Shown in pieces: positions 3,195-64,000 of a stretch of 64,000 bases of DNA. The notes under the pieces were generated by a model, which saw nothing but the letters and a program-made list of their open reading frames with translations, had not been told where the DNA came from and searched no databases. Source of the DNA: Escherichia phage CMS-2020a; the sequence record CP053388.1, one strand, 5' to 3'. Both the position numbers and the translations under genes were made by a program. Each line of letters opens with the position of its first letter. Position 1 is the stretch's first letter.

Positions 3195-3244
3195 GTTTTC
3201 TTATCCTTTTAAACAAATTGTTTTCTTAATAAGATAATTTCGAT

Positions 3245-8462: not shown

Positions 8463-11400
8463 TCACGTCTTAATGGTTTCTGCTACGTCGGCTAATATCG
8501 CTTCTAGTCGTTCTCCCTCTTCAGGTCTGAAGTAAAGAATGTTGGGGTTAAACCCGTAAAAGACAGTAACGTCAAGGTCTGGAAGATACTCCTTCCTGCC
8601 GACCAAATCGGATGGCTTGTTTTTGTTGTTAAACAATGCCGTTGCCCGGCTACCACACGTCAGCACATAGGTCGGGCGCACCAGATTGATCTCTTCACGC
8701 ATAAAGTCGGTGAACTGGCCGATCTCGTCTTTGGTGTAGTCCTTTTCTTTGTCTTTCACCTTTTTGCAAACGCCTGTGACATAGAGATCGCCCATGCGCA
8801 AATCCCCAGCCGTCAACAGCTTGGCCTTAAAATCGTCGTATCCGTTCTCCATAAAGTAACCGGTTCGAGCATCATTGCCGTTCGCATTGTCCAGAATGAT
8901 CATGATTTTCGGCTTAATACCAATGCTGGGGCGGATTAGTTCATCACCTAAGCCCATTTCAGCCGCCATCCGCGTCATGAGTACGTTAATCTCAGCCGAA
9001 CGTTTGGGGTTCATCTCAAACGGACGTGAGGCTTTAACTGCGTCTATGACAAGGTCTCCCATCAATTCAGCCTGGTCGCGTAGGCGCTCTGGATCAGTTG
9101 CTGGCAGACTACCTGGCTCGATGGATGCAAACGCCCCTACTTTTTGCAGCGATTCGCGCACTCGACTATTACAGGCACGTTTCTCGACAGCTTCTTCGAA
9201 TTGCGCCAGTGACTCGAATTTGCCGCCAACTTTTTCTCGCGCTCTCATGATGGCTTGGCAGCCATTCTCAGAACACCCCTTCACAGCAGAGAAGGGCGCA
9301 TACAGCACCTGGCTGCCATCTTCAAGCGTGCGGATCTCGATTCGGTTAGATGACACGTTAACGTCTGGTGGCAATACGCGAATGCCATAGGTCAGCGCAT
9401 CCTTAACCAGCCCCTGGTGCTTATCCTCGCCCAGAATGGTGAGCGCAGCAGCGAAGAACTCAGCAGGGTAATGTGTCTTTAACCACATAGACTGATAGCT
9501 GATTAAAGAATAAGCAACACTGTGTGATTTGTTGAAGGCATATCCACCGAACTTCTCAAAGGCGTCCCATATTTCTTGGGCTTTTTCCTTACTGAGACCT
9601 TCCTGTTCAGAGACGATCTCCACGTAGTCTATGCCGTCACTAATAGCCTCGCTGTAGCTTCTACGCTTACCGTCTGAGCAATCCAGTTTTGCGTGTTTGT
9701 GAACCTCTACAGTACCTCCATTTTTGAGTGACAGTGTCACCCAGCCTGCTTGTGCTCGTTCTACAAAATCGCTGCCGATCGCTTTCATCTTATCCATGTT
9801 CTTTTTACCGATAGCGGAACGCAGAGCGTCTGCTTCGGCCATAGAGAACCCGGCAAGTACTCGGGAACTTTGCATGATTTGTTCCTGATAGAGCAAAACA
9901 CCATTAGTCTCCCGGGTGACTTCCTCAAGACGCGGATGAATTGAATGTGGAGCCATGAAGCCTTTGGCCACGGACACATAATCGTCCAACATGCCGGATT
10001 GAATCGGGCCAGGTCGGAAGAGCGCAGTCGTAGCAACAACCGTTTTAAAGCTCATTGGCTCAATTCCACCACCTAAATCTTTAAGCAGCTTGCGCATTGG
10101 GCCTGATTCAAGCTGGAAAACACCTTGAGTGTACCCAGCAGCAAAACCATCCAGCACCTTGCGATCTTCAAGAGAAATGGCATCAAGATTGATATCTTCA
10201 CCTGTGTTCTCTTTTATGTAGCGTTTTGCACTATCGAGCAAATCGAGAGTTGCCAGACCGAGTACGTCCAGCTTAATTAGGCCCATAGCCTCGCAGTAAC
10301 GCTTGTCAAATGCGATACAACGCGCGTCACCACGGCGTTCAACCGGTGTACGTTCTGTCAGAGGAACACCTGCTACGATCATCCCTGCCGCATGTCTACC
10401 AAAGCCACGCATAAGGCTTTGTAACTTGCAGGCTGCATTGAATGCATCAGGATATTTTGTTGCGTATTTGTCGAGACTTGCCAGTTGTTCGCGCAGCTCC
10501 TCCAATGGAAGGCTATCATCCTCGACGTTCTTCAGCTCTTTTGATACCGCCATATCTGCGGACTCCACACCATAAATACGAGCGGTATCACGTAGTGCAG
10601 AGGCTGCGCCCAGGTAGGTGAAGTTCGGAATGCCTGCAACGTAATCTTCGCCGTAGCGTTCATTCAGATACTCGATCACCTCATGGCGACGTGCCTGGCT
10701 GAAGTCCAAGTCCGCATCCGGCAAGTCGAGACGCTCAGGGTTGATGAAACGCTCAAACAGAAGACCGTGACGGATTGGGTCGACGTTGGTTATGCCTATG
10801 CACCACGCCACCAGAGAACCGGCAGAGGAACCACGACCAGGCCCAACGGGAATGCCAGTTTCACGACTATGATTCATCAGATCGCGCACCATCAGGAAGT
10901 AACCACAGAATCCCAGGCGAGTCAGCGTGTCCATTTCGTACTTTAGCCGCTCAACATAAACCCTGTTCTCAGAAGCAGGTGGTGTGTAGCCAAACTCTTT
11001 TGTGGTAAGACGTTTACGCAGCCCTGCAACAGCCAGTTTCATCAGCGTTGCAGGCTCGTCGTCTGCCATCTTTGGCAGTGCTGGCGGCAATTCATGCCAG
11101 CGCCATGTGCAGGCATCGATAATGGTATCCTGCGTTGTTGAGGCCATTGCAGCTGTTACCGGCACATCCATGCGAACGGAGAAGGCTTTAAGCGCCTCAA
11201 GGAGATGGCGGCGACCATTGACGGCGTTATCTCGCTGGTGGGGGATACGCAGACGATGCGGCTGGTCGATTTTTATGTTGTTCGTAACCATGTGCGCAAT
11301 GTCTTTAATGTCTGCATCGTCGATCGATTCGTAATAAGCGGGATAGAACGCCACTGGCTCTATTTTCAATGCGCTGGCGACTTTCATCGCCCGGACGTTA

Positions 11401-11969
11401 ATCTGGTCGTAGAATGGGGTAGGGTGCGGATAGACCACACTATAGAAGTTGTCTTTTCCACCCGCTGTAATCAGTGTGCTTATGATTTTTGCAAAATCGT
11501 TGCGTTGGAACACGCTACCGATGTCGGAAGTAAGCAGGATGATGTTGCCTTTGGCATATGTAGAAACCAACTGTTCGAGCGAGAGACGCGGTACAAAGTA
11601 GAACTGTTCTCGTGTGTTGGCCGCCGTCATTAGTTCGCAGATGTCGCGATATCCTTTCTCATTTTTAATTAGAGCGGTAAACGAGTAGTTACGTCCTCGC
11701 TCTAATGATTCCATACATCTCATAGATTCTTTAGCAAGTTTAGCCCGGTGCTCGTATGTGGGATCATCAACAATGTTTAGTTTCACACCACAAATAACCG
11801 CCATGTCGTCACCAGCGGCACGTTGTAGTGGAATAACGCTCGCAATATTCATGCTATCTGCTGAAATTACAGCGGTGTAGCCAGCTTCTCTGGCAATCTT
11901 CACCGCGTTTTCTGCTTTTAGAGCCGACTCCCCAAGTGAGAAGTCAGTTCGAACCATCAGTGCCTTCAT
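8463..11969 (-). CDS. dnaE: DNA polymerase III alpha subunit (DnaE-type, PHP domain N-terminus)
   Basis: 1168 aa; PHP-like N-terminus, conserved polymerase core segments such as GLIKLDVLGL and NKSHSVAYS. Confidence 0.85.
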   Translation of the reverse strand: MKALMVRTDFSLGESALKAENAVKIAREAGYTAVISADSMNIASVIPLQRAAGDDMAVICGVKLNIVDDPTYEHRAKLAKESMRCMESLERGRNYSFTALIKNEKGYRDICELMTAANTREQFYFVPRLSLEQLVSTYAKGNIILLTSDIGSVFQRNDFAKIISTLITAGGKDNFYSVVYPHPTPFYDQINVRAMKVASALKIEPVAFYPAYYESIDDADIKDIAHMVTNNIKIDQPHRLRIPHQRDNAVNGRRHLLEALKAFSVRMDVPVTAAMASTTQDTIIDACTWRWHELPPALPKMADDEPATLMKLAVAGLRKRLTTKEFGYTPPASENRVYVERLKYEMDTLTRLGFCGYFLMVRDLMNHSRETGIPVGPGRGSSAGSLVAWCIGITNVDPIRHGLLFERFINPERLDLPDADLDFSQARRHEVIEYLNERYGEDYVAGIPNFTYLGAASALRDTARIYGVESADMAVSKELKNVEDDSLPLEELREQLASLDKYATKYPDAFNAACKLQSLMRGFGRHAAGMIVAGVPLTERTPVERRGDARCIAFDKRYCEAMGLIKLDVLGLATLDLLDSAKRYIKENTGEDINLDAISLEDRKVLDGFAAGYTQGVFQLESGPMRKLLKDLGGGIEPMSFKTVVATTALFRPGPIQSGMLDDYVSVAKGFMAPHSIHPRLEEVTRETNGVLLYQEQIMQSSRVLAGFSMAEADALRSAIGKKNMDKMKAIGSDFVERAQAGWVTLSLKNGGTVEVHKHAKLDCSDGKRRSYSEAISDGIDYVEIVSEQEGLSKEKAQEIWDAFEKFGGYAFNKSHSVAYSLISYQSMWLKTHYPAEFFAAALTILGEDKHQGLVKDALTYGIRVLPPDVNVSSNRIEIRTLEDGSQVLYAPFSAVKGCSENGCQAIMRAREKVGGKFESLAQFEEAVEKRACNSRVRESLQKVGAFASIEPGSLPATDPERLRDQAELMGDLVIDAVKASRPFEMNPKRSAEINVLMTRMAAEMGLGDELIRPSIGIKPKIMIILDNANGNDARTGYFMENGYDDFKAKLLTAGDLRMGDLYVTGVCKKVKDKEKDYTKDEIGQFTDFMREEINLVRPTYVLTCGSRATALFNNKNKPSDLVGRKEYLPDLDVTVFYGFNPNILYFRPEEGERLEAILADVAETIKT

Positions 11970-12147
11970 GTGTTTTTACCTTTCTGGTTTTTTTGATTTT
12001 GTCATTGGGGAAGCCTACGAACTTCCCATGCATCGAAATCGCAACTTCTTTTGCTGATTGGTGACAATCGGGCTTGTCTGGACACACCAGACAAGCCTTA
12101 CCAGTTTCAGAAGCAGCGATAAGAGAGCCGAAACATCCTTTACGCAC
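11944..12147 (-). CDS. small Cys-rich protein (67 aa)
   Basis: ORF with C-x2-C...C-x4-C-H pattern; overlaps DnaE start by 25 bp. Confidence 0.3.
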   Translation of the reverse strand: MRKGCFGSLIAASETGKACLVCPDKPDCHQSAKEVAISMHGKFVGFPNDKIKKTRKVKTHEGTDGSN

Positions 12148-12149
12148 GA

Positions 12150-13385
12150 TTAACCAAATATTTTTTGAACAACTTCACGAGCCGCTTGTGCAGAAGCTGA
12201 AGGGAGTTTGTTAATGAAAGAACGCTCAATACCTGTCACAAAGTCGCCTCGCATCATTCCAATCTTGGCCGACAACAAAAGTTCACGAGGGCCAATTGGC
12301 TGACTAATGAGGTGTTCTTCGTATCCATCGCGAACGATACCGGCAAACTTAACCATCTTTTCAGCGTATTCATCCACGATGCCTGCATTTGTCAGCATGT
12401 TGATCTCTGCGTCTTTGCTCATGTATTTCACATTCGAAACGATGCCAAAACGCGAAAAGTTCGCGGCGTTCTGGATGTTTGTACCCTGGTACAAGCCGGT
12501 TTCATCACCAGATCCGTTCGTGTTGCCAGTGCCAATGAAAGCAAACCGTTCATGCGGAGTAATGCGACGCCATTCTGGAGTTGCCTCTTTGATGACCAAC
12601 GCTTCACCTTCCAGCACTGGCTGATACACGCCAAGAATTTGTGGAAACGCAAAGTCGTATTCATCCGCGAGGTAAACCCAGCCATGCTTCATTGCGAGCG
12701 CAAGCAAGCCAGGTTCGAAATACGTAGAGCCATCACGCGCCAGAATTTGCCCCGTAACATGTGCCTCTTCCATTGATGCTGTATGTTGGGCACGGATCAA
12801 CGGACGATTGAGCAAAGCACATAGCTGTGTAGGCAATGACGATTTGCCTGTTCCTGCATGACCCCACAAATAGCCAGGTATGCCAAGTTCAAGCATCATG
12901 AAAATATCTTTGATCAGTTCGAAGTCGCCATATACGTAGCCTTTCTTCACTTCGGGAACGAACTCTGGATACGGCGTATTGACGTTGACGCTAACCATGA
13001 GCGGCGTCCCACGTTTTGTTCCGAGTTCTTCCACCGTTACGTTTAGCAGTTCGTGAGCTGCGACCAGATCTGTCTTGTACTCAACTGTGCCTGTGTAGCC
13101 AGGGCTACTGGTCAAGCCAGAAGATTTGGCCATTTCGCTTTTTTGCTCGGCACGTTTAGCTTGAATTGCATCAAGTGCCTTTTTCGATAGCGTTGGTTCA
13201 TCTGGAAACTGCGTTGTGTACATTTTCAGTACGGTGTCAGGATCGGCATCTTTTACTGACTCAGGAATGCCCTCGCAATTACCATTGGCTACATGGGACT
13301 TAAAATAGTGAAATGATTTGCCGCACCACTTGCAAACAAGGTAATCAGAAGGATTTTTTTCATTTTGCAGTGCAGTAGTCGTCAT
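12150..13385 (-). CDS. AAA+ ATPase, CobS/MoxR-like
   Basis: Walker A GHAGTGKSS, Walker B VYLADEYD, paired with downstream VWA protein. Confidence 0.65.
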   Translation of the reverse strand: MTTTALQNEKNPSDYLVCKWCGKSFHYFKSHVANGNCEGIPESVKDADPDTVLKMYTTQFPDEPTLSKKALDAIQAKRAEQKSEMAKSSGLTSSPGYTGTVEYKTDLVAAHELLNVTVEELGTKRGTPLMVSVNVNTPYPEFVPEVKKGYVYGDFELIKDIFMMLELGIPGYLWGHAGTGKSSLPTQLCALLNRPLIRAQHTASMEEAHVTGQILARDGSTYFEPGLLALAMKHGWVYLADEYDFAFPQILGVYQPVLEGEALVIKEATPEWRRITPHERFAFIGTGNTNGSGDETGLYQGTNIQNAANFSRFGIVSNVKYMSKDAEINMLTNAGIVDEYAEKMVKFAGIVRDGYEEHLISQPIGPRELLLSAKIGMMRGDFVTGIERSFINKLPSASAQAAREVVQKIFG

Positions 13386-13480
13386 GCGTTTTTCCTTTGT
13401 TCTCTAATGAGCGTTCAACTTCTTATATAAATATATCATCATCTATCGTAAGTGGTTACTTATCATTAAGGCTGTTTTGT

Positions 13481-15589
13481 TCACTTTAAAATGATACGAG
13501 ATAGTTCAGTAACTACAGATGAACCAAGACTATCAACGCTCGTTACCAGGGCATGATTTGAGTAAAATCTCTCCGGTGCGTCAGTCATGATGCCAATTGC
13601 CATCAAATCAATATCAGTCTGCGTTTCAATTTGCTTCGCAACTGAACGCAAATGAGCGTCAAAACCTCTCCCAACAGCCCACGGCGCGCCATCACTCAGA
13701 ACAAGCATGATCTTCCTGTCCTCCAAGCGACCGGAAAATAACGATGCAAGGCTGGCTATGCTTTCACCATCCACGTTATTAAGAAGTGGGAATGTGTAGC
13801 CTACGCACCCCATACGTGAGCGAACTTCGCGAGAATTTACCTTTTCATTCCAATTTTTGATGATAGGTAGCATTAAAGATTCAAAGCGAGAGAACTCATA
13901 CTTGACAGCCTTAAGTTCTCCTGCCGCCATATGACTACCAAATGTAGTGAAGCCGGTGATAATGTTGGGAACATTTATTCGATCAAGGGCATCGGCGATG
14001 GTATATGCACTTGCAAGAGCCAATTGTATCGTTATACCACTCATTGAACCTGATAAATCAATCACTTGTTGAACACAGGCGTTAACGGCTTTAGATTCTT
14101 CTTTTTTACGAAACACGCGAGCATCATTCATTGCTAATCTGTAGATACTAGAACCATGAATGTGCCCCCGACGCTGGCCCGGTATAAACTGAACTCTGTT
14201 TCTGCTTGCTATTGCTCGCTCCAGGTCTTTTGCCAGCGTCGACGAAACACCTGACGAAAGATGCTTTTCAATATATTTGTCGAAGAGCTGGTTGCCTTCA
14301 GGAACGATGCGATAGCGGCTGATTGGATATCCTCCCAAATCAATATCGGAGAATGTTTTAATAAGCCGTTTGATATGGGCTTCTGCCTGATCAATCGAGC
14401 CGATGAAGTCGTATGAGCGATTGTATGGCCTGTATTCGCTTTTCGAGCTTTCTGTTAACTCGCTTTTAATCGTTTCGGATAGCGCATCTTCTGTCATGCC
14501 TCCGACTTCATCTTCCATGCTATCCAACTCCTCTAAAGCCTCTTCCAGACTCATTTTTGACGGAGTTGGGATATCTGAAGAGCCGTCTTCTGTCGTTTTT
14601 CTTTTTTCGTGGTCAGCGGTTAATGATTCTGACGCCGCGTTATCAGAAGCATCAGAATCTGATACCTCTTTATCATTTTCTGTATCATCGAATATTGTTT
14701 CTGATGATTCAGAATTATCTGAATCATCACTGTCGTTATTATCATGTTTGTGCTTACTATGTGATTCTGATTCGATAGATTTGTGATTATCTAACACTGA
14801 GGGTGTCTCATGATCTTCGTTGTCTTCACTGTTTTCTCCAGAGGCATCCGTCTGGTCAGCGTCTGAAGGATCGGAAGTTTTTCCCGGAGCTGACTCCTTA
14901 CCTTTGCTTTCACTTTCAGTGTCTTTGAGGATCTTAGCTATGGTCGCAGCCACCTTTACACAATCCTCGGTGCAAGACATGTTACGCACGGCCACATCGA
15001 TACCATGTTCTTTTAATAATGAAATTGGTTTCTCAATGACAGGCCAATATTCATCCATGAAATCTACGAACGGTGCTTGGCCATCCCAGGCTCTTACAAC
15101 CGGACAGAGAAAGAAGTTTAGAAAAAGCGCGCGCTGATCTTTGCCACAATAAGCAATAGCCTCTGAAGCCTTTGGTTTAAAGACTTTTTCGATTATAAGG
15201 CGCTGAGTTGCCATCAGATTACGTCTTGTTCCGTTAAAGACCTCACCCATTTTTCGCTCGATGAACACGTCTTCTAAGGCATTCCATAGCGACCAGGAAG
15301 GAACGCGTCCTTTTTCTCTCATTTTGTTGGACACACGAATATCGGTAAACAAAATGTGAGCAACTTCATGATCGAGAAATCCGCGCACAGCATTCATCAA
15401 TGCCGGTGTTGCGTTATCCGGGATTGATGGGATGTTTACGAGAATTGGATCTCCATCATCGTTATAGCGTACATAAGCGTCGTCCCCTCGTTCTGCAACA
15501 GGGATGTTTTTACCTGAAAGGAGAGCGACTACTCGTTTTACACTGTCACGGAAGTCCTGAACCTCTTTGATGGAACGTTTTTTAGACAT
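13481..15589 (-). CDS. von Willebrand factor A (VWA) domain protein, CobT-like, with long acidic Ser/Asp/Glu-rich linker
   Basis: C-terminal VWA/MIDAS-like segment DLSGSMSG; long acidic low-complexity region; partner of AAA+ ATPase. Confidence 0.6.
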   Translation of the reverse strand: MSKKRSIKEVQDFRDSVKRVVALLSGKNIPVAERGDDAYVRYNDDGDPILVNIPSIPDNATPALMNAVRGFLDHEVAHILFTDIRVSNKMREKGRVPSWSLWNALEDVFIERKMGEVFNGTRRNLMATQRLIIEKVFKPKASEAIAYCGKDQRALFLNFFLCPVVRAWDGQAPFVDFMDEYWPVIEKPISLLKEHGIDVAVRNMSCTEDCVKVAATIAKILKDTESESKGKESAPGKTSDPSDADQTDASGENSEDNEDHETPSVLDNHKSIESESHSKHKHDNNDSDDSDNSESSETIFDDTENDKEVSDSDASDNAASESLTADHEKRKTTEDGSSDIPTPSKMSLEEALEELDSMEDEVGGMTEDALSETIKSELTESSKSEYRPYNRSYDFIGSIDQAEAHIKRLIKTFSDIDLGGYPISRYRIVPEGNQLFDKYIEKHLSSGVSSTLAKDLERAIASRNRVQFIPGQRRGHIHGSSIYRLAMNDARVFRKKEESKAVNACVQQVIDLSGSMSGITIQLALASAYTIADALDRINVPNIITGFTTFGSHMAAGELKAVKYEFSRFESLMLPIIKNWNEKVNSREVRSRMGCVGYTFPLLNNVDGESIASLASLFSGRLEDRKIMLVLSDGAPWAVGRGFDAHLRSVAKQIETQTDIDLMAIGIMTDAPERFYSNHALVTSVDSLGSSVVTELSRIILK

Positions 15590-15687
15590 GGCTAATCCTT
15601 TGTTATGAAAACAAATTATTTACTAGTGTGTTTAATGTAGCACTGCGCGAACAGGGAACTAAGCCATTCGCGCAGGGAGAAGAGGGG

Positions 15688-15900
15688 TTAACAGATTCTG
15701 ACGGCTAAAGACCCGGAGCCGGTATTGAGAAGCGTGAAGCGTTTGTTGTTAAATTCGAATATAAAGCCAGTTGTGTCATTCACACCAACCTGAATCTGCT
15801 CATTCGGTAGATCGGTGAGGATGTCAGCTACACACTCATCAGCTAATTTCTGTACGTGTCCGATCTCAAGAGCGATTAGGCTGGAAATAGTGGTGTTCAT
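15688..15900 (-). CDS. hypothetical protein (70 aa), first gene of leftward early operon
   Basis: ORF adjacent to AT-rich divergent promoter region 15900-16150. Confidence 0.35.
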   Translation of the reverse strand: MNTTISSLIALEIGHVQKLADECVADILTDLPNEQIQVGVNDTTGFIFEFNNKRFTLLNTGSGSLAVRIC

Positions 15901-16151
15901 TCAATCAATCCATTCTAACTTATACTATGGTAAGGAATACTACTAAAATTTATATCAATACTGAATACATTCATATCATATACAAGTTAATTTTCTTACC
16001 TGTTTTGGGCTAATTTTTCTCCGTGCAATGGCCTTTAACCGGTCTTTTAAGTGCCTATCGAAAAAAATGATAATAGCTTTACAACCCTAACCTTTGATGT
16101 AATATCGGTAAGCACTTACCAGTGAGAATTGAACGCGCAAAGGTTGTAACA

Positions 16152-16538
16152 ATGTCTGACAACAAGATTGAATTTATAGAAAGTCGCTATGCTGCTTTTA
16201 TCGCAGGGCTGATTGAATCCTCACCTATGAGTCAGGCCCAAATAGCCAGACTTATTGGTTATAAAAATGCCAACAACCTTTCTTTAATTAAAAGTGGCAA
16301 AATTCCATTGCCTATCGATAAGGTTCGTCCGTTGGCGCTGGCGCTGGGTATTGAGCCAAGTCGTCTTATGATGATGGTGCTGGAAGAACGCCAACCTGAA
16401 CTCGCAGCATTTTTATACAAAGAAGGCACCGCTCCTCTTAACGAGGACGAAAAACAGGTTCTTGCTGCATATAACGAGCGATTCGGTAAAGAGAAAGGCG
16501 CATCACAAAAGGTTGTTGAGGCTATAAAGTCTCTATGA
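16152..16538 (+). CDS. XRE-family helix-turn-helix transcriptional regulator (candidate repressor)
   Basis: HTH segment SQAQIARLIGYKNANNLSLIKSGK; start placed at ATG 16152 with AAGG RBS (track ORF starts at GTG 16122). Confidence 0.65.
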   Translation: MSDNKIEFIESRYAAFIAGLIESSPMSQAQIARLIGYKNANNLSLIKSGKIPLPIDKVRPLALALGIEPSRLMMMVLEERQPELAAFLYKEGTAPLNEDEKQVLAAYNERFGKEKGASQKVVEAIKSL

Positions 16539-17636
16539 AAAATTTACACGAATAAGCTCTGTTGATAGACGATCTCCCTTGAATTTGTGGTCAATTTCGT
16601 CTAAATCCGGTTGCTCTACAATTGATGCGATGTACGTCGAGAAACTTTCTAAGGCGTCTCGCATCTCGTCCATATAATCGTGCCGGTCGTAGACTCGATC
16701 TATCCCCTCAAGACTGTGGTTCATGATTTTGCGTGATACCTCCTGGCTTATGCCTAATGCTGGGAAGTAACTACGCGCAGTACGGCGCAAGTCTCGGGGT
16801 GTAAATGGCTCAAGCTCCATCAGTTCTGGTCGTTCCAGAATACGACGTAATGCCTGGGCTATTGCCACTTTAGACATAGGAAGGTCTTTCCCGATTTTTT
16901 TATTCGAAGGCACGAGCCACTGGCTGCCTTTACCGTATTCGAACAACTCTTCAATACATGTGCGCATTAATGTGCTTAAAGGCAGCGAATGCTCACGGGC
17001 AGATTTGTTCCTCTTGCCTTGATTCCAAACCCCACGCTTAAGATTGAACTCACTTTTTTTAGCCCGCAGTACTTCGTCAGGTCGTCTTGCGGATACAAGA
17101 CACAGCCTGGCCGCCCATTTTGTACCAGCGCACACATTGAAGTAGTCCCATATATTCCAGAACACCCATACCTCTGCGTCGGTCAGCTTCCGCTCGCGAG
17201 GTGTGGGCTTTGCGCCACCGGCAACTTTGTTTAGTGACATATCGTTTAACGGTGACACGTCTATCATCCCCTGGAAGGCGCACCAGCTAAGGAACTGCTT
17301 CATCAGAGAGAAAACGCGGCGGCCCATAACAATTTTGCCATCCAGTATTAGTGGGTTGACCAGTTGGTTCACCATGAACCTATTAATGTCACTTACTTTT
17401 ACATCGGCAATGTGCGGCAAAACATGTATCAAAATACAATGAACAGCGATCTCTGGCCGACGTCTGGTTATCAGCAGAGATAAGCGAGTGAATAACATGA
17501 ATGCGTCCGAGAATCTCATGTCATTGCTGACCTGGGAGATCATAACGGCCTGCATTTGAGATGCTCTTTCGAGATACTCAATCGCCTCTTTTGAGGTGTT
17601 CTCCGCAGCGCGTGCTCTGTCAAAGCTATTTTTCAT
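16533..17636 (-). CDS. tyrosine site-specific recombinase (integrase/resolvase family)
   Basis: C-terminal R...H-x-x-R...Y pattern (RDLRRTARSYF, NHSLEGIDRVYDRHDY). Confidence 0.65.
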   Translation of the reverse strand: MKNSFDRARAAENTSKEAIEYLERASQMQAVMISQVSNDMRFSDAFMLFTRLSLLITRRRPEIAVHCILIHVLPHIADVKVSDINRFMVNQLVNPLILDGKIVMGRRVFSLMKQFLSWCAFQGMIDVSPLNDMSLNKVAGGAKPTPRERKLTDAEVWVFWNIWDYFNVCAGTKWAARLCLVSARRPDEVLRAKKSEFNLKRGVWNQGKRNKSAREHSLPLSTLMRTCIEELFEYGKGSQWLVPSNKKIGKDLPMSKVAIAQALRRILERPELMELEPFTPRDLRRTARSYFPALGISQEVSRKIMNHSLEGIDRVYDRHDYMDEMRDALESFSTYIASIVEQPDLDEIDHKFKGDRLSTELIRVNFS

Positions 17637-17809
17637 ATGACAATCACCGAGTTACGCCGATTCACTGTATAAGTAAACAGTATATTAGGCATAGATTCTT
17701 ATAGGATCAAGAGTAAAAGTAACTCATTTTCACTAATGATTCCATACATAGTAGGTATGGAATCATTTAAGGGAGGAATTTAAATTCTGAGGCGTTATTA
17801 ATATGATTG

Positions 17810-18220
17810 TTAAGGGTTAGTGAGAGCTTGAAATGCGGCCGCGTAGGCAGCGATATCGACCATAATTTTTGGATCTTTCGCGTACTGATGTGCGTTGTTA
17901 GGGAAGATTGCCAATAGGCTATACACATCTTGGAAATGTGCATGTTGACTGTAAACGAGTGCACGGTCGCTTGTGCAATTGAATCTGCTGCGGCTGCTGG
18001 TTCGTTCTTGCTTCGTGAACAAGAGATGAACGTGATAGACGCGGGAGGACACGATAGCACCAGGAGCCGTATACGGGCCATCTTTGCCGAATATGGCTGG
18101 GTACATGCCTTGTTTAAACGACTTGAAATCGTTGAGTAACGTAATCTCTAAGTCAGGCTTTATATCGAAGGTCGGCTTTAAAAATTGGGCGTAACTATCA
18201 CTGTTCCATGTGATCTTCAT
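17810..18220 (-). CDS. YafO-like toxin candidate
   Basis: motifs RVYHVHLL, FNCTSDRALVYSQHA, LLAIFPNNAH match my recollection of E. coli YafO; recall-based only. Confidence 0.45.
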   Translation of the reverse strand: MKITWNSDSYAQFLKPTFDIKPDLEITLLNDFKSFKQGMYPAIFGKDGPYTAPGAIVSSRVYHVHLLFTKQERTSSRSRFNCTSDRALVYSQHAHFQDVYSLLAIFPNNAHQYAKDPKIMVDIAAYAAAFQALTNP

Positions 18221-18229
18221 CGTTCAACC

Positions 18230-18838
18230 TCAATGGAATGAGAAGTTGGCGAAGACGTCCTCATCAATGAGGCCAGTCTGCGATTCGATGACGTCTACGT
18301 CGTTAAAACACTGATTTAAAATCAATAGCAGATCAGAGATAGCTAAACGATACTCAGTTACAGAATCGCTCAAGCGTTTCAAATATGGATGAGGTTGCTC
18401 AGAGTCGCGAATCAACTTGTTAACGAATCCCTCCAAACCACGAATGGTCAGGTCAACGTTCTTCAGTTCTTCGTAACGACTTTCACCGAAGTTGCTGCGA
18501 ATCTTTTCCGCTTTCCATCCAGAGATGGCATGGGCTAAGCGAACGTGTTTCGCCGTCAATTCTGCGAGCTTGCTTTCAATCTTTGCCAGCTGTGCCGCAT
18601 CGCGGTTTTCTTGAACAGGAATAGCCGCAGTGCTCACATAGGTTTGTGTTTTGAATCCTGTGAATTTCGCAGAGGGCTTCATCGTGCCACGGAAGCGTCG
18701 ATATCCACGCGGTTCAATAAAATCACGCCCAGATTTAGCTGTAGGCTTTGCGTTTGAAAAGCGTGAAGCGTTAGAGGTCACAGTAGCAAGGGCATTGCTA
18801 ATGACACTCATATCTTCTAGGCAATTTTCTAAACGCAT
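18230..18838 (-). CDS. hypothetical protein (202 aa), upstream partner of YafO-like gene
   Basis: ORF 9 bp upstream of toxin candidate on same strand. Confidence 0.45.
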   Translation of the reverse strand: MRLENCLEDMSVISNALATVTSNASRFSNAKPTAKSGRDFIEPRGYRRFRGTMKPSAKFTGFKTQTYVSTAAIPVQENRDAAQLAKIESKLAELTAKHVRLAHAISGWKAEKIRSNFGESRYEELKNVDLTIRGLEGFVNKLIRDSEQPHPYLKRLSDSVTEYRLAISDLLLILNQCFNDVDVIESQTGLIDEDVFANFSFH

Positions 18839-18933
18839 AAAACCTCTTAACTGCTCAATGGCTCGTAACTAAGTGTACGCTGTGCTGATGAAAGCTACAA
18901 ATAATAAATGGCCCCAAAAGGAGCCGTATTGTA

Positions 18934-19179
18934 TTACAGAGTGCTCGCAAAAGCAGCAAATTCTGTGTATCCGCCAATCGGCTGGCCATCGATCAGCACC
19001 TGGGGGATCGTCTCTACCGGTTTACCAACAATTTCGCTAAGTTTTTCCTTCTCGATACCGGCAGTGGTGATGTCGATGTACTCATAATCACCGTAGCCAT
19101 GTCCCTTTAGTTGCTTCGCCAGCTCGACCGCACGTTTGCAGTATGAGCAGTTATCTCGTCCGTAGATAGTGATCGTCAT
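18934..19179 (-). CDS. glutaredoxin / NrdH-like redoxin
   Basis: CSYC active-site motif near N-terminus, 81 aa thioredoxin-fold length. Confidence 0.8.
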   Translation of the reverse strand: MTITIYGRDNCSYCKRAVELAKQLKGHGYGDYEYIDITTAGIEKEKLSEIVGKPVETIPQVLIDGQPIGGYTEFAAFASTL

Positions 19180-19352
19180 AACTTAACAGATGCCTTTATA
19201 AATATTGATTCGAACATATCAGACTATACTACAAACAGATTTTTTTGATAAGTATGTAGTAACTTATTGATTGACTAGTAAGCAATTGAAGTGATTACGA
19301 CAATAGATTAGAGTAAGGATTGCCTTGAAATGTACATTTTATAGAGGTTTTA

Positions 19353-20261
19353 ATGATTGGTAAGTTGTCTGATTCTTTGATTGAAAATAAATACAACGAA
19401 TTTAGAGAAGAAATATCTTTACTTTTTGACTATTTAAATCAGATAAATGATACAACAAAGAAAAATATAAAACGTCTTCTTAAAGAAGTGGAGTATGCAC
19501 AGAATCCAGATACTATTATTAATATTAATGAAACTATTAAGATTAAGTGTGGCACAACGTTAGCTCGCCATTTATGTTCAAACCCATATACAGGTTCAAC
19601 ATTAGAGATAGGTAACAGCGCCATTGATTTAGAAGAAAAGATAAGATTGTGTAATACTTTGAAAAATAAACAATATCAGTGGGTTATTACTGAAGCCTAT
19701 GAGTTACTGGAAGACTATATTGAGGCAATATATGTCTATACTGTATGTGTTCGAAATGATTTATGGTCCTCAAGTGATTTTGGTAAGGTTGAAGATGATG
19801 AAATTGGGAAAAGGGAAGTTTATTACAGATTATTAAAAGCAAAAAGTAACCCATCGAAAAAAATAACTAAAATTTTCAGAAATAAAATACCTGGTTTCAA
19901 AGAGATAGAAACAAACAACAAGATTGGCAAAAACTATCGCTTTAACATCAAGCTAATTGAACTACTAAGACATACAATAGTACACAATAGTGGACGATTC
20001 AATGATACAGAAAAATTTATAAATAAGGTTTTAGATGAATCTGAAATAAACGGTAAGAAAAGAGTTATTGGAGAAAGAGCTGTTAGAAGTTACATTACTA
20101 AAGTGCAAGAAGATGATATTGTGATGCTCTTAGAAAGACCATCTGAAATTTTAGGTTCTTTTGGTGGGTATTTTAACAGAGCAAAATTTTTACTAAGTGA
20201 TATTTTAGAATACTCACTAATCATTAAAGAAGAACTAAAATCATATCTAGGCAATCATTAA
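19353..20261 (+). CDS. AT-rich foreign gene; HEPN-motif protein, possible Abi-like abortive-infection/defence protein
   Basis: GC content visibly far below neighbours; own AT-rich upstream region and terminator; RHTIVH fits Rx4-6H HEPN motif. Confidence 0.5.
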   Translation: MIGKLSDSLIENKYNEFREEISLLFDYLNQINDTTKKNIKRLLKEVEYAQNPDTIININETIKIKCGTTLARHLCSNPYTGSTLEIGNSAIDLEEKIRLCNTLKNKQYQWVITEAYELLEDYIEAIYVYTVCVRNDLWSSSDFGKVEDDEIGKREVYYRLLKAKSNPSKKITKIFRNKIPGFKEIETNNKIGKNYRFNIKLIELLRHTIVHNSGRFNDTEKFINKVLDESEINGKKRVIGERAVRSYITKVQEDDIVMLLERPSEILGSFGGYFNRAKFLLSDILEYSLIIKEELKSYLGNH

Positions 20262-20265
20262 CAAA

Positions 20266-20287
20266 AAAGGGGCCGAAGCCCCTTTGA
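20266..20287 (+). terminator. intrinsic terminator AAAGGGGC-CGAA-GCCCCTTT plus T-run
   Basis: GC stem-loop and T tract 5 bp after stop of 19353..20261. Confidence 0.7.
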
Positions 20288-20439
20288 ATTTTGCGCTGAA
20301 AAAAGTGTTGCTAGGATGTTAGCAAGCTATGGTTAAGAACGTCTGCCGTAATTGTCTATCACAGCGTTGAGCGGTCTGGTTTATGTTAGCGGAGTCTTAA
20401 TCTGGTTGATTAAAAGGCCAAACCGCTCAACGCTGTGTC

Positions 20440-20526
20440 TGGCGGAGAGTAATGGAATCGAACCATCATCGCTTGCGCAATGGGACGGTTTTCAAGACCG
20501 CTTGAGCACCATGCTCCCTACTCTCC
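20440..20526 (-). tRNA. tRNA-Ser (anticodon TGA), type II with long variable arm
   Basis: hand-folded: acceptor GGAGAGT/ACTCTCC, anticodon loop CTTGAAA, T-loop TTCGATT, encoded CCA; D-arm somewhat atypical. Confidence 0.55.
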
Positions 20527-20750
20527 GGCCGTTGTGGTGGCCGGTACTGAATCTCCGGCATACGGTGCAGCCAATTAGGACTACGGACGATCACCGCTCG
20601 CGAAAGGGAAGATTTGCGGCCGCATTTCCCTAACACCCAAGAAAGCTATCGCATCAGTCTGCGAATCCACCACAACGGTAAGATCACTACCTTTCGACCA
20701 GTCATTGTGCACATGAACGACGATTAACCGTAATGATCTTATCGTTGTAT

Positions 20751-20826
20751 TGGTGCCGGTTAACGGACTCGAACCGCTGACATCCTGCTTACAAGGCAGG
20801 CGCTCTACCAACTGAGCTAAACCGGC
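20751..20826 (-). tRNA. tRNA-Thr (anticodon TGT)
   Basis: hand-folded cloverleaf: acceptor GCCGGTT/AACCGGC, D-stem GCTC/GAGC, anticodon loop CTTGTAA, T-loop TTCGAGT, CCA encoded. Confidence 0.8.
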
Positions 20827-20830
20827 AATT

Positions 20831-20917
20831 TGGTGGGGAGTGATGGAGTCGAACCACCCGAGTCGCCATGACAGTAGATTTACAGTCTACACCGCTACCT
20901 CTACGGACTAACTCCCC
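20831..20917 (-). tRNA. tRNA-Tyr (anticodon GTA), type II
   Basis: acceptor GGGGAGT/ACTCCCC, anticodon stem-loop GTAGA-CTGTAAA-TCTAC, long variable arm, T-loop TTCGACT, CCA encoded. Confidence 0.7.
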
Positions 20918-20922
20918 TAAAT

Positions 20923-20997
20923 TGGCGATGGTGGGTGGATTCGAACCACCGACCAGTTGGTTAACAGCCAACTGCTCTACCGCTGAGCTACACCATC
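20923..20997 (-). tRNA. tRNA-Asn (anticodon GTT)
   Basis: clean cloverleaf: acceptor GATGGTG/CACCATC, D-stem GCTC/GAGC, anticodon loop CTGTTAA, T-arm GGTGG-TTCGAAT-CCACC, CCA encoded. Confidence 0.85.
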
Positions 20998-21775
20998 AAT
21001 TCGGCACTGCCAGTATTTATTACTCAACAGTGCCAATCGCGACGGTTTAGTTTCTGCCAGGAAACGCACCGCTACTTGCACTTTTCGTTAGTGCCAGACG
21101 CTTTCGACTTCGCTCAATAGTAGAAGGCAAAATCTTTAAGTAGATGATGTTTCTGAGGACAGCACCTACTTTGTTATTTATACAATGTAATGTATGGAAT
21201 CATTTGTTGTGAAAACAGGCACCAATGGCAACAGTGGTTAAACCTACACAACAATCCTGTCTTCACAACGTTGAGGCCACTACTCCGATTGAATGTTTGC
21301 CCAACATGTTACATATCAACGCTCGCCGGTATCTCTGTGAATAGAACCTTAGAATTGATAAAAATGTAATGGCCTCAACGTTGTGTGCTGGCTAACCATA
21401 CCAGCCGGGCTACGTCGCCGCTTTTTAACCCAGTATAAACGACATAATTGAACAAAATGACGTAACAGGATGGGCGGTCAGTGGCTAAGAATCCGGGAGT
21501 CATATGGAGTTGAAAATATACCGACCGCCCATTCTGTTACTTCATCGGAGGGAACACTCATGTTCCCTCCTGCGTTCTGCAATCACACTCGCTCAGTGTG
21601 TCCCATTTCGGTAACGAGGCTGGAAACTGACCTCGCTGGTGTTTGGCTTATTAGGCTACTGCCAGATAGACTTCTTCGTTTGCACTTGTATTTAAGTTCA
21701 AACAGTCGCGTCTCAACGAAAACAAAGTCATCTTATACATAAAAGATAAGTAAGTAAATACTTATCTTTGTGTTT

Positions 21776-27905: not shown

Positions 27906-27948
27906 GTGCTTTCCTTTGTTTTTTAAACAAATTGTTTTCTAGTATTAG

Positions 27949-28971: not shown

Positions 28972-29739
28972 ATGGACGATTTATCGGTATACGCGAGATC
29001 ATTGGATAAGGCTAAATACTATGTTTACTGTCTCTATGATACAGAAGACAAGATGAAAAGACCGTTTTACATAGGAAAAGGCAAATCGACTCGTTGTCTC
29101 GATCACATCAAGTATCCCGATGACTCTCCCAAATCCATGCGGATCAAAGAACTTTTGGCTAATAAAAAATTAGGCATAGATATACTTCGTCATGGTATGG
29201 ATGAAACCACAGCCAAACTTGTTGAGGCGACATGCATCGACCTTATGGGGGTCGGAGAGCTTACGAATAAGGTACGAGGAAGTGGTTCCATGATGGGCAG
29301 AATATCACTGGACGCCTACCATCACTTAGTGCTGCAAGAGGAAACTGAAATTGCTCCTGATCACGCCGGTCTTGCCTTCCTGCTAAACAGCACCTACAAG
29401 TCAGGAATGTCCGCTCTGGCATTATATGAAGCTACGCGTGGCGTATGGGCAAAGGTTCCAAGAGACGAGAATCTCAAATATGCCTACGCTACATATGGTG
29501 GGCTGATAATGGAAGTTTATCAGATTGAATGCTGGGTCAAAGCCGGTTCTCAGCAGTACTTTACAAGGGATATAGCTCTTGGCCCCGACACAAAACGTTA
29601 TGAATTTGTTGGCAGAATAGCCGATGAGCATATTAGAAAACTGTATGTAGGCAAATTAATCAAGAAGCCACCAAGCTACGGTAGCCCTTTTGTGAAGGTT
29701 GGGGTGGTTAGGACTGAACATAGTGTTAGCGCGGCATAA
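28972..29739 (+). CDS. GIY-YIG domain protein (nuclease-family; homing-endonuclease-like or defence-related)
   Basis: N-terminal YVYCLYD...PFYIGKGKSTR...H matches GIY-(10-11 aa)-YIG spacing; + strand gene among minus-strand modules. Confidence 0.5.
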   Translation: MDDLSVYARSLDKAKYYVYCLYDTEDKMKRPFYIGKGKSTRCLDHIKYPDDSPKSMRIKELLANKKLGIDILRHGMDETTAKLVEATCIDLMGVGELTNKVRGSGSMMGRISLDAYHHLVLQEETEIAPDHAGLAFLLNSTYKSGMSALALYEATRGVWAKVPRDENLKYAYATYGGLIMEVYQIECWVKAGSQQYFTRDIALGPDTKRYEFVGRIADEHIRKLYVGKLIKKPPSYGSPFVKVGVVRTEHSVSAA

Positions 29740-29791
29740 AGCTGACACTGTAGTTATGCATTGGCGCAATGTACGCGCCAATGCATGATTT

Positions 29792-30151
29792 TTAACCTTT
29801 CTTCATCAACTCTCGTTTGATTTCATCGGTACGCATCGTGACATCGGCAGCGGTGATCGCCTCATTCAATTTCACGATGTCCTCGATTTCCTGCGGTGAC
29901 TTCTCTGCCAGATGGAAAATGGCTGCTCGAATCACGTCAGAACGAGTGAACTTCTCGAAGCGAGGGATGAACTTCATCATCTCCAGCAGTTCGAAGTATT
30001 CGTCCTCCAGTGACATTGTGCGGCTTTTAATTTTCTCTTTGCCACGAGTCGGGCGTCCCTGTGGTCTGACTGGTTGGCGCAAAGGAGTTGTGTTCTTAGC
30101 CGGTGCATCAGGCTCTTTGCGCTTTGCTAGGTCACCCATTTTCATGGACAT
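29792..30151 (-). CDS. ribbon-helix-helix centromere-binding protein (ParG-like small partition protein)
   Basis: 119 aa, basic N-terminal tail, RHH-like segment MSLEDEYFELLE; start overlaps parA stop. Confidence 0.5.
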   Translation of the reverse strand: MSMKMGDLAKRKEPDAPAKNTTPLRQPVRPQGRPTRGKEKIKSRTMSLEDEYFELLEMMKFIPRFEKFTRSDVIRAAIFHLAEKSPQEIEDIVKLNEAITAADVTMRTDEIKRELMKKG

Positions 30152-30819
30152 TATTCTTCTTCCTCCAGACTCAACAGATAATCTACAAATTCTTCAAACT
30201 CGGCTTCCGCCTTTTTGTCGCGCTCGCTACCGGTCATTTCAAAGATAGAACGACCAGACTCTTCCGCATCATCATAGACGTTGCGGTTATACAGATTGAC
30301 TGGCGCAGACTCGATTCCAAACGTCTCAACAATCTCTTTAGCCGCCAGAATGCGAGACACTTGTGATGGCAAAGCCGGGCACTGGTTCATGACCGCGCGG
30401 ACCTTCACTTTATCGTTTACATTGCGAACATTGTCGATAATAGGATCGATGTCACGTAAAGATTTCAAATCACGACGCTTAGGACGCAGCGGGATAATGA
30501 TAACGTCAGCCATCAGCATCGCTTGTCGCTGAATTTCGGAGTCGAAGCCACCAGCATCTACCACTACAAACTCAGCTCTACCCTGAAGCGATTTTAGGTG
30601 CTTAATGATGTCATCCTGAACGTATGCAAAAGGAATCAGCTCAAGGTCTTCGTTCTGTCGACGGTCTTCACACCAGCTCGTTGTCGTGCGCTGAATATCT
30701 ATATCGGTAATATAAACCTTCTTCTTCTTTTTGACTTTCAGGCAAACGGCAATTTGCTGGGCAACGGTGGATTTGCCAGGCCCGCCCTTTGTGCCGCCAA
30801 CCACAAAGATCTTGGTCAT
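30151..30819 (-). CDS. parA: ParA/Soj-family partition ATPase (short type Ib)
   Basis: deviant Walker A GGTKGGPGKST; 222 aa. Confidence 0.8.
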   Translation of the reverse strand: MTKIFVVGGTKGGPGKSTVAQQIAVCLKVKKKKKVYITDIDIQRTTTSWCEDRRQNEDLELIPFAYVQDDIIKHLKSLQGRAEFVVVDAGGFDSEIQRQAMLMADVIIIPLRPKRRDLKSLRDIDPIIDNVRNVNDKVKVRAVMNQCPALPSQVSRILAAKEIVETFGIESAPVNLYNRNVYDDAEESGRSIFEMTGSERDKKAEAEFEEFVDYLLSLEEEE

Positions 30820-31137
30820 TGGAGAGTTCCCTTTGCGTATATAATTATCGTCTGAAACAACTTGTTTTCTTATATGTGATATAGCCTAAATGCCTACGGC
30901 TGCGGTGTAAAGGTTAAATGGTAGGTTGTGATTAACAATTGGCAATCATAGCTTGTATTTGTCTGTTGAAAAAAGTAACAATGACCTCTATATTACAAGT
31001 ACGGTGATATGCCGTACACAATTTGATAATGCACACGTAATGGGCTATAGCCTTTTAAAGTAATTTTTGAGTCGAAAACTCAGTTTGAACAGAGGAGATT
31101 GATGGCCTTCCTACATCACGGCCATCAGGAGGAATAC

Positions 31138-31407
31138 ATGTCAGCACTAAAAAAGCAGCGCATCGATTTGAGATTAACCGATGACGATAAAAGCATCATC
31201 GAGGAAGCTGCCGCAATGTCTAACCAGAGCATTACTCAGTTTATGGTTAGCAGTGCATCTGAACGTGCCGTGAAAGTTATAGAGCAACACCGTAGACTAG
31301 TTCTGAATGAAGAATCCTGGAATCTGGTTATGGACGCTATAAGCAATCCTCCGGCACCGAACGACAAGCTGAAACGAGCTGCTGATCGTCTGAAAAGCAT
31401 GGAGTAG
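31138..31407 (+). CDS. DUF1778-type (TacA-like) RHH antitoxin
   Basis: small ORF 8 bp upstream of GNAT gene; start set at ATG 31138 with AGGAGG RBS. Confidence 0.6.
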   Translation: MSALKKQRIDLRLTDDDKSIIEEAAAMSNQSITQFMVSSASERAVKVIEQHRRLVLNEESWNLVMDAISNPPAPNDKLKRAADRLKSME

Positions 31408-31414
31408 TTTACTC

Positions 31415-31936
31415 GTGAGCAATACAACGATAGAGATTTTCTCTGGAGAGAAAGATTATGATCTAAACGGTTTTGATTGCGGCGAAGAGTCACTAAACGC
31501 CTTTTTAGCCAACCACTTAAAAAGGCAGCATGAGGGAAAAATTCTTCGTGCTTATGTGCTTTGCACTCAAGAAGAAAGGCCAAAAGTGCTAGGATATTAC
31601 ACTTTGTCAGGTAGTTGTTTTGAAAAGGAGTCCTTACCTTCAAGAAGCAAACAAAAGAAGGTTCCTTATCGGAATGTTCCAAGTGTTACTTTGGGTAGGC
31701 TGGCTTTGGACAAGTCCCTTCAAGGTCAAGGATTTGGCTCAATGCTTGTAACACATGCAATGCGCGTTGTGTACAATGCATCTCTTGCTGTAGGCATTCA
31801 TGGACTTTTCGTTGAGGCGTTAAATGACAAAGCCAAGGCGTTTTATAAAAGTTTAGGCTTTATCCAGCTGGTTGGTAACAACGAGCGTTCTTTGTTCTAT
31901 CCTACAAAATCTATCGAAAAATTGTTCGAAGAATAA
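31415..31936 (+). CDS. GNAT acetyltransferase toxin (TacT/AtaT-like)
   Basis: GNAT motif A LQGQGFGSMLV; operon arrangement with small upstream partner; GTG start. Confidence 0.65.
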   Translation: MSNTTIEIFSGEKDYDLNGFDCGEESLNAFLANHLKRQHEGKILRAYVLCTQEERPKVLGYYTLSGSCFEKESLPSRSKQKKVPYRNVPSVTLGRLALDKSLQGQGFGSMLVTHAMRVVYNASLAVGIHGLFVEALNDKAKAFYKSLGFIQLVGNNERSLFYPTKSIEKLFEE

Positions 31937-31968
31937 TGTGTTCCCCTCATTTGAGGGGAACTTCGACA

Positions 31969-32184
31969 TCACCAACCACAAACCCTCTCTCCCATCGTAT
32001 TGTGAAAAAGGATTTGGCGTTCGGTTTCTTCAGTCATTACATCATTATTGCTGATATAGATAGGCTCAGCCCCATCGCAGAACAACACGCTGGCTGTTTG
32101 TGGTTTAATGACGCACCCACTTATCATACAACTCACGATGAACGGCAGAAGCATCTTTCTGACGTATTTTACTGCTCGTCTCAT
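31969..32184 (-). CDS. o-spanin (Rz1-like outer-membrane lipoprotein) candidate
   Basis: signal peptide with lipobox ISGC; overlaps 3' end of i-spanin candidate. Confidence 0.45.
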   Translation of the reverse strand: MRRAVKYVRKMLLPFIVSCMISGCVIKPQTASVLFCDGAEPIYISNNDVMTEETERQILFHNTMGERVCGW

Positions 32185-61409: not shown

Positions 61410-61525
61410 AGATCCCTCTAAAACACACAGAGCGCGTCCATGCGCTCTAAAACAACTTGTTTACTGCATCTGCTAACCAACTTGTTTTCTGGGGTGTTTA
61501 ATTAGGTCTGGCATGTCTTACGAAG

Positions 61526-62780: not shown

Positions 62781-63031
62781 CTGCGCTCGATATTGGCATT
62801 GATGAAATCCAGGCGAAGAGACTCCATCGCCCCTACCATGACATACGGGCGCCCGCCGTTATGCCAGCAATCAAGAACACTGCCGTCGTTGTTGATCATC
62901 AACAGCGCCAGGCTCTGGCTTTTTCCTTCTCTGGCGTGCTGAAGTGCTTCTTCCAGCAGGCGGATGACTTCCACGTTGTTGTTATCAGTCTCTTTCGATG
63001 GCTTCAGCTCTACGATCTTCAAATCAGGCAT
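62777..63031 (-). CDS. hypothetical protein (84 aa)
   Basis: ORF overlapping neighbours on both sides. Confidence 0.4.
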   Translation of the reverse strand: MPDLKIVELKPSKETDNNNVEVIRLLEEALQHAREGKSQSLALLMINNDGSVLDCWHNGGRPYVMVGAMESLRLDFINANIERR

Positions 63032-63662: not shown

Positions 63663-64000
63663 GCAGCCATCTCCCCGGAAGAGATCTTCTCCGCATATGC
63701 CACAAATGCGTCTACCCCGCTTTCTCCCGTCATTTCTTCCATGTGGGCAAGCAAATCACCAACAACAATGGCAGAGCCAGCAGGGAGCGTTTTAAAGCCC
63801 AATACGTCGACAACACGTACTTCTTCCGCTGCAACTTCACGACTGATCTCGGTGTGTTCATCCTTCTGTCGTTTAGTTTCTTCGCCAAGATCGATAACTA
63901 GCGAGTCGGTGTCCATTTCTTCTGTCATACTGCCAACGAGAACATTCAACTCACGCTCTTCAAAGCCGAAAACCTCGATATCGTCCAGAACAAGCGACTC
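63659..64000 (-). CDS. hypothetical acidic protein, 5' end beyond window
   Basis: ORF runs to the window edge; stop overlaps ABC ATPase start. Confidence 0.3.
   Translation of the reverse strand, partial: ESLVLDDIEVFGFEERELNVLVGSMTEEMDTDSLVIDLGEETKRQKDEHTEISREVAAEEVRVVDVLGFKTLPAGSAIVVGDLLAHMEEMTGESGVDAFVAYAEKISSGEMAA

Follow-up and report, generated by a model that had tools for sequence, protein, structure and literature searches.

Two kinds of described system offer the closest comparisons for the locus considered here. In ParF–ParG of TP228, a small ParA ATPase without an N-terminal DNA-binding domain is followed by a small co-transcribed partner whose N-terminal tail is basic and disordered and whose C-terminal domain is folded, and the DNA upstream of parA holds a conserved regulatory region. 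In the chromosomal toxin–antitoxin (TA) systems KacAT of Klebsiella pneumoniae and AtaRT of E. coli O157:H7, a DUF1778/TacA1-type antitoxin gene precedes the gene for a GNAT toxin, and the toxins of this group (clade A: AtaT, KacT) acetylate glycyl- and hydrophobic aminoacyl-tRNAs in vivo (PMC9177977). We have analysed positions 29792–31936 of a stretch of 64,000 nucleotides (the window) from Escherichia phage CMS-2020a (sequence record CP053388.1), and consider it likely that this segment carries two independent maintenance-type modules set back to back, a ParF-like partition operon and a TA cassette of the AtaRT/KacAT type. The reading builds on which genes are present, on their homologies, synteny and conservation, on the identity of the operator and on expression in a lysogen that is 99% identical. 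All four open reading frames named in a first-pass annotation, which was made from the sequence alone, were found in place in the open reading frame list. Both modules are of known kinds; the real interest of the locus lies in an orphan partner protein, a missing centromere and a palindrome that recurs across the plasmid.

Plasmids of ~110 kb from E. coli match this region of the window at 100% identity, and phage Cyrano (pLF82) matches it at 99%, par genes included. The par genes alone share 87% identity with those of Salmonella phage SSU5 and ~80% with those of Klebsiella phage-plasmids, and the par cassette is present in 774 PLSDB records from Klebsiella, Escherichia, Enterobacter, Salmonella, Citrobacter and Cronobacter. 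The first gene of the cassette, parA (30151–30819, minus strand), encodes an ATPase of 222 amino acids whose deviant Walker A motif, TKGGPGKST (residues 10–18; KGGxxKS at 11–17, with the signature lysine present), begins at residue 10 of 222, leaving no N-terminal DNA-binding domain or extension. ParF of TP228 (4dzz; 206 amino acids) is the closest PDB match (E 1.2e-10, residues 9–199), although a value of 1e-10 denotes a distant similarity. The NCBIfam model ParA_partition covers the full length of the protein (E 1.9e-33) at a score below its cut-off, and the PHROG assignment is 164 (ParA-like). These results support a type Ib-like small partition ATPase at the level of family resemblance, as the first-pass annotation had proposed. 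Hidden Markov model searches gave Pfam matches to MipZ (top), AAA_31 and CbiA for ParA, to TacA1 for the antitoxin and to Acetyltransf_1, _7 and _10 for the toxin.

Directly after parA on the same strand is the gene for a protein of 119 amino acids (29792–30151), the presumed centromere-binding adaptor, which we call the partner. Its ATG and the parA stop codon overlap by one base (TAATG), and its translation is predicted to be coupled to that of parA. When the four most distant partner homologues with retrievable context (31–40% identity) were examined, each was found directly downstream of a ParA of 221–229 amino acids, in four distant lineages and on SSU5-like contigs; the ParA–partner pair is therefore a conserved functional unit. 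The family itself is small, with 25 clusters in a collection of 5.8 billion proteins and 18 matches among 1.84 billion representatives, and corresponds to PHROG 5111, labelled ‘unknown function’. In SSU5 the gene is SSU5_034, called with a truncated start (96 amino acids). Family alignments revealed conserved motifs: an N-terminal G-D/G-L-A-K (MGDLAK), a basic stretch RPQGRPTRGK, I-K-S-R-T-x-S-L-E-D-E and (T/S)-R-S-D-V-x-R-A-A.

The fold of the partner was approached through AlphaFold2 models and profile searches. A first full-length model had a mean confidence (predicted local distance difference test, pLDDT) of 63 and no Foldseek match; with a more diverse alignment, a C-terminal domain of four helices was predicted at a pLDDT of 81.7, preceded by a disordered basic tail (residues 1–42, low pLDDT). 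Structure searches with the models gave no specific fold match, Pfam searches with 12 family members at E values up to 10 gave nothing relevant, and searches of PDB sequences gave chance matches only, whether the query was the single sequence or a profile. The first-pass annotation had described this gene as an overlapping, ribbon–helix–helix (RHH)-like member of a compact cassette. Its overlap and conserved linkage stand, but the RHH fold found no match in Pfam or in the structure searches. A monomer model is blind to that fold, since the ribbon forms only in the dimer. The RHH family aCcr1 did weakly match 12 of 16 partner members from helix 1 to helix 2, with a best E of 1.1e-4, below the cut-off, and the segment SRTxSLEDE...(T/S)RSDVxRAA fits a strand–helix–helix pattern by eye, so that an RHH fold for the partner is plausible, if unproven. 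In its place after ParA, its basic tail and its folded C-terminal domain the partner resembles ParG, but homology between the two is not detectable, and the partner differs in its greater length (119 versus 76 amino acids), in two extra C-terminal helices and in an RHH fold that is unproven.

A quite different identity has been given to this protein in Cyrano (OV696614, 3999–4358), where it is annotated as a ‘RelE/ParE putative toxin’ (CYRAN_29) and has been included among the toxin morons (PMC9928086). The sole support for such a toxin is the database label and its reuse in that study. No match to the RelE/ParE family was obtained in Pfam, NCBIfam, PADLOC or the PDB, permissive thresholds included, no antitoxin gene adjoins the partner, and the predicted structure, a disordered tail followed by four helices, is not the alpha/beta fold of RelE. 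With no sequence match, an all-helical model and a constant linkage to ParA, the label is effectively refuted, and we give a RelE/ParE-type toxin almost no credence.

Upstream of parA lies a block of 107 bp (30820–30926, minus strand) that is the best candidate for a cis-acting site and would serve as the leader, promoter and operator of the operon. A promoter is predicted here (TTTACA-17-TAGGCT; −35 at 30911–30906 and −10 at 30888–30883, minus strand), both hexamers of which are identical in two distant loci (L013 and L018). When nine elements are aligned, a stretch of ~100 bp before parA is almost invariant. Pairwise identity in a sliding window reaches 0.93–0.98 at 30845–30920, against 0.7–0.9 for nearly all coding DNA. 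Past 30926 on one side and past 29792 on the other, identity falls to ~0.3. From the collapse at both edges it follows that the mobile unit is 29792–30926, and that a cis site travelling with it must be inside. The block contains single inverted repeats only, namely TATAT-N3-ATATA (30871–30883) and a palindrome, AAACAAGTTGTTT (30855–30867). The ~80-bp near-invariant part upstream of parA is accordingly put forward, from its conservation, as the best local candidate for the centromere.

We favour the following scheme for this module (29792–30926, minus strand), which would be the conserved partition operon of the SSU5-like family. The partner would dimerise through its helical C-terminal domain and bind plasmid DNA, most likely at the near-invariant block upstream of parA, and binding there would autoregulate the operon as well. 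The disordered basic tail of the partner, which carries the MGDLAK and RPQGRPTRGK motifs, would stimulate ATP hydrolysis by nucleoid-bound ParA. Partition activity of this sort, as in ParF/ParG, would spread a plasmid prophage of about five copies over the nucleoid; the copy number reported for Cyrano in the LF82 lysogen is ~5.5 per cell (PMC9928086).

Several observations weigh against this scheme. The ParA score against ParA_partition is 115.7, compared with a trusted cut-off of 180. Searches for direct, inverted and tandem repeats between 29700 and 31150 found no centromere-like array next to par, only short matches at chance level; this differs from ParF–ParG, in that no parH-like array of short repeats was found upstream of parA, and agrees with the first-pass annotation, which had left the centromere unlocated. 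The palindrome within the block is not specific to par and recurs at 20 or more other promoters, so the conserved block may reflect ordinary regulation and not a centromere. Finally, two ParB/Srx-domain proteins are encoded elsewhere on SSU5-like elements. Literature searches found no paper on the centromere of the SSU5 family, nor on the AAACAA-N-TTGTTT palindrome. One further inverted repeat was considered as a centromere and rejected: the perfect 12-bp repeat at 29756–29786, which is outside the conserved module and looks like the terminator of an inserted GIY-YIG gene. It reads ATGCATTGGCGC-N7-GCGCCAATGCAT, has a run of T after it and is placed where the GIY-YIG and partner genes converge; a terminator is its probable role.

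The ParB/Srx-domain proteins raise the alternative that the partner is not the centromere binder, and that ParA works with these proteins, encoded ~33 kb away, or has a role other than partition (MipZ-like positioning or a phage function). At the end of the window (63024–64000, minus strand) an ABC-type ATPase gene (63024–63662) is followed by the C-terminal 114 amino acids of a ParB/Srx-domain protein, whose gene runs off the window end (63659 onward); in sister plasmids, SSU5 and pMT1, two adjacent ParB/Srx genes occupy that locus, upstream of the terminase genes, and form a minor rival for the centromere-binding role. The two genes with ParB/Srx N-terminal domains and the ATPase are conserved in NZ_CP010144 (a sister plasmid), SSU5 and pMT1, the top Pfam match of ParA is MipZ, and the partner has no proven DNA-binding fold, all of which would fit the alternative. 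It is the partner, however, that is coupled to parA and kept right after it across lineages down to ~31% identity, and the ParB/Srx genes adjoin terminase genes. Moreover, pMT1 has the ParB/Srx operon together with a separate P1/P7-type ParAB pair and no ParF-like ParA, which shows that the ParB/Srx genes do not travel with the ParF-like ParA. We regard the alternative as unlikely.

The palindrome in the parA block, which sits just past the predicted promoter, belongs to a dispersed set. The 13-bp sequence AAACAA-N-TTGTTT (AAACAANTTGTTT) occurs in the window at 3211–3223, 15609–15621, 27925–27937, 30855–30867, 61450–61462 and 61475–61487; counted as strand matches there are 14, against 3.2 expected, a number reached in none of 100 shuffles. 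More than a dozen further promoters carry it in the rest of the sister plasmid NZ_CP010144, SSU5 has 20 sites (0.12 expected) and pMT1 has 6 (0.29 expected). The sites are found ~13 nt after an AT-rich −10-like hexamer and 11–66 nt before a gene start, usually preceded by AAGA, and the genes behind them include parA, a helicase gene (the site at 27925 is 20 nt before the helicase ATG), nrdB, a terminase-proximal gene and many small open reading frames. From its position the palindrome looks like a common operator at the starts of early transcripts, bound by a global regulator of SSU5-like phage-plasmids.

If the partner were a dual-function protein that recognised AAACAA-N-TTGTTT, the dispersed operators could jointly serve as the centromere, which would explain the missing local repeat array. 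There are precedents by analogy in omega of pSM19035 and KorB of RK2, which are partition proteins and global repressors, and under this reading alone the likeness would lie in a parA-promoter palindrome that recurs throughout the replicon. Unlike those cases, nothing links the partner to the palindrome, and pMT1 of Yersinia pestis retains sites without the partner: tblastn searches of pMT1 with the ParF-like ParA and with the partner were both negative and a P1/P7-type ParAB pair is found instead. That pMT1 lacks the partner yet has six palindromes leans against the partner as their binder, although this evidence is weak, given how similar pMT1 is to pHCM2-type elements at the DNA level. We think it improbable that the partner has such a double role, and the near-invariant block remains our preferred location for its binding site.

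The second module (~30930–31940, plus strand) would be a cassette of the AtaRT/KacAT type occupying a slot of variable content that separates parA from the lysis genes. The antitoxin gene encodes 89 amino acids with an N-terminal RHH domain (AtaR/KacA-type, DUF1778/TacA1; 31138–31407) and is followed after 7 nt by the gene immediately downstream, which encodes a GNAT protein of 173 amino acids with a GTG start (31415–31936), by homology an AtaT/KacT-type aminoacyl-tRNA N-acetyltransferase. The most likely start of the antitoxin is the ATG at 31138, preceded by AGGAGG, and not the listed TTG at 31099, because the alignments with KacA and AtaR begin at that methionine. The antitoxin matches Pfam TacA1 with an E of 8.6e-26 and, in the PDB, KacA (5zgn_A, E 6.6e-42; 80% identity) and AtaR (6ajm_C, E 1.3e-40). 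The toxin matches AtaT (6gts, E 1.4e-79; 70% identity without gaps) and KacT (5zgn_C, E 3.9e-75), its catalytic Y144 aligns with Y144 of AtaT and an acetyl-CoA motif, QGQGFG, is found at residues 103–108. Gene order and sizes also agree with KacAT and AtaRT; the differences are that the present pair is borne on a phage-plasmid and not on a chromosome, and that its tRNA specificity is a prediction from homology.

The first-pass annotation had called these genes a TacA/TacT-like pair. A DUF1778 antitoxin and a GNAT toxin are indeed present, and TacAT of Salmonella belongs to the same superfamily, in which a DUF1778/TacA1 antitoxin is paired with a GNAT toxin that acetylates aminoacyl-tRNA. TacAT is, however, much more distant: TacT-type PDB chains match the toxin with E values of 1e-11 to 1e-20, against 1e-79 for AtaT, and the TacT-type toxins of clade D are glycine-specific. 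By homology the pair is thus assigned to the AtaRT/KacAT clade (clade A) of type II TA systems, not to TacAT proper. A public phage record already describes it as KacT-like. In the LF82/Cyrano lysogen, transcription over local background was 35-fold for the toxin, 60-fold for the antitoxin and 9-fold for the partner, listed there as ‘RelE/ParE’ (PMC9928086).

A sigma-70 promoter for the TA operon is predicted at 30966–30994 (plus strand; TTGAAA-17-TATATT, 10 of 12 consensus positions), and a palindrome, GTACGG-N7-CCGTAC (GTACGGTGATATGCCGTAC), follows at 30999–31017 (plus strand). It occurs once in the window, with 0.03 chance matches expected. The operator DNA crystallised with KacAT is AAATGTACGGTTATTAACCGTACATGA, with the core GTACGG-N7-CCGTAC (PMC6698736), and half-sites and spacing in the present palindrome are exactly those of the crystal DNA. 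At R8, D10 and R12 the antitoxin does not differ from KacA, which uses these residues to read the operator in the KacAT–DNA crystal structure. As the predicted promoter ends at 30994, the palindrome would span the start site, predicted near 31000, as reported for kacAT. Two features set it apart from kacAT: the 7-bp spacer is TGATATG here and TTATTAA there, and the predicted leader here is long (~135 nt). A Cronobacter cassette in the same slot, with a toxin of 62% identity, keeps the half-sites and the promoter position and has a changed spacer. Because of the match to KacAT in half-sites and spacing, the position over the start site and the conservation in Cronobacter, we assign 30999–31017 as the TA operator and not a centromere. 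The first-pass annotation had noted this palindrome in its search for the centromere; it is present where described, but as a centromere lead it gives way to an operator of the KacA/AtaR type, and a false lead is thereby removed. By homology, the RHH domain of the antitoxin would bind GTACGG-N7-CCGTAC within a toxin–antitoxin heterohexamer and repress the operon. On depletion of the antitoxin the toxin would acetylate aminoacyl-tRNAs, glycyl and hydrophobic as expected for clade A, and translation would stop; such toxicity could lead to post-segregational killing, abortive infection or both.

The slot between parA and Rz/Rz1 holds other genes in SSU5, PhiR41_1, pHCM2, pJN2-26 and hvKP859 and is empty in pSTM_Phi and SB1124. 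The exact TA cassette was found in 145 PLSDB plasmids, nearly all from Escherichia/Shigella, and most of those among the matches listed are ~105–113 kb. Within the SSU5-like family, one branch carries the cassette as accessory cargo. Beyond par, a GIY-YIG protein of 255 amino acids (28972–29739, plus strand) matches PADLOC PD-T4-3 over nearly its full length (E 1.5e-23) and Pfam LEM-3_GIY-YIG; Cyrano and SSU5 lack its gene at the corresponding place. Both flanks of par look like accessory or defence slots, given the PD-T4-3 match here and, in a distant relative (L018), ApeA (HEPN) and an S24 peptidase in the slot with Abi_2 across par.

Since the cassette occupies a variable accessory/defence slot, plasmid addiction is only one of two plausible roles. 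The other is that it serves mainly as cargo for anti-phage or inter-element competition through abortive infection, with some post-segregational killing still possible. The varying slot content among relatives, the defence genes of the distant relative, the PD-T4-3 match on the other flank and the 62%-identical TA variant in the same slot of the Cronobacter element all point in this direction. On the other side, PADLOC has no model matching either TA protein, work on AtaRT, KacAT and TacAT has so far dealt with growth arrest and persistence and not with defence, and TA pairs for stability are frequent on large low-copy replicons. We hold a mainly defensive role to be a tenable but tentative alternative to plasmid addiction.

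The wider context is that of a phage-plasmid. The first 1,627 positions of the window contain the C-terminal 364 codons of a RepB-family initiator followed by at least eight iterons (1091–1627; consensus about GTATGCTGTCAGCGGT), which places the replication origin ~29 kb from the par cassette. The window is not colinear with NZ_CP010144, and positions 1–1627 correspond to the part of that plasmid with RepB and the iterons. Neighbouring genes are phage-plasmid-like and include those for a DnaB-like helicase, endolysin, holin, Rz/Rz1 and tail fibres, and the plasmid matches are ~105–115 kb and non-mobilizable. The identity to Cyrano and SSU5, the surrounding phage genes and the RepB/iteron region together identify the replicon, on sequence grounds, as an SSU5-like E. 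coli phage-plasmid. The plasmid lifestyle suggested by the first-pass annotation therefore holds in so far as the element is extrachromosomal (RepB, iterons, plasmid matches), but it is not a plain plasmid. Four tRNA genes (Ser-TGA, Thr-TGT, Tyr-GTA, Asn-GTT) are clustered at 20440–20997 (minus strand), and an Rfam search of 29600–32100 found no credible RNA family. In NZ_CP010144, a chromosomal-type metG–apbC segment and a type I restriction–modification system (10678–21142) are inserted beside a promoter that carries the palindrome. To find a methionyl-tRNA synthetase gene together with an AtaT-like toxin gene on one element is curious, though it may be coincidental.

SSU5-like phage-plasmids are frequent in clinical E. 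coli, Shigella, Salmonella Typhi and Klebsiella, with resistance genes aboard, and we know of no study so far of how they are inherited. For the TA pair, the present locus adds nothing beyond another carrier. The partition operon offers more: the ParA partner represents an orphan family that has gone unstudied and that bears a wrong toxin label in at least one published genome; the boundaries of the cassette are now set at 29792–30926, and the search for the centromere is narrowed to the 80-bp block or the plasmid-wide palindrome. Should the palindrome, bound by the partner, prove to be the centromere, partition in this family would be tied to the global control of the plasmid-prophage state.

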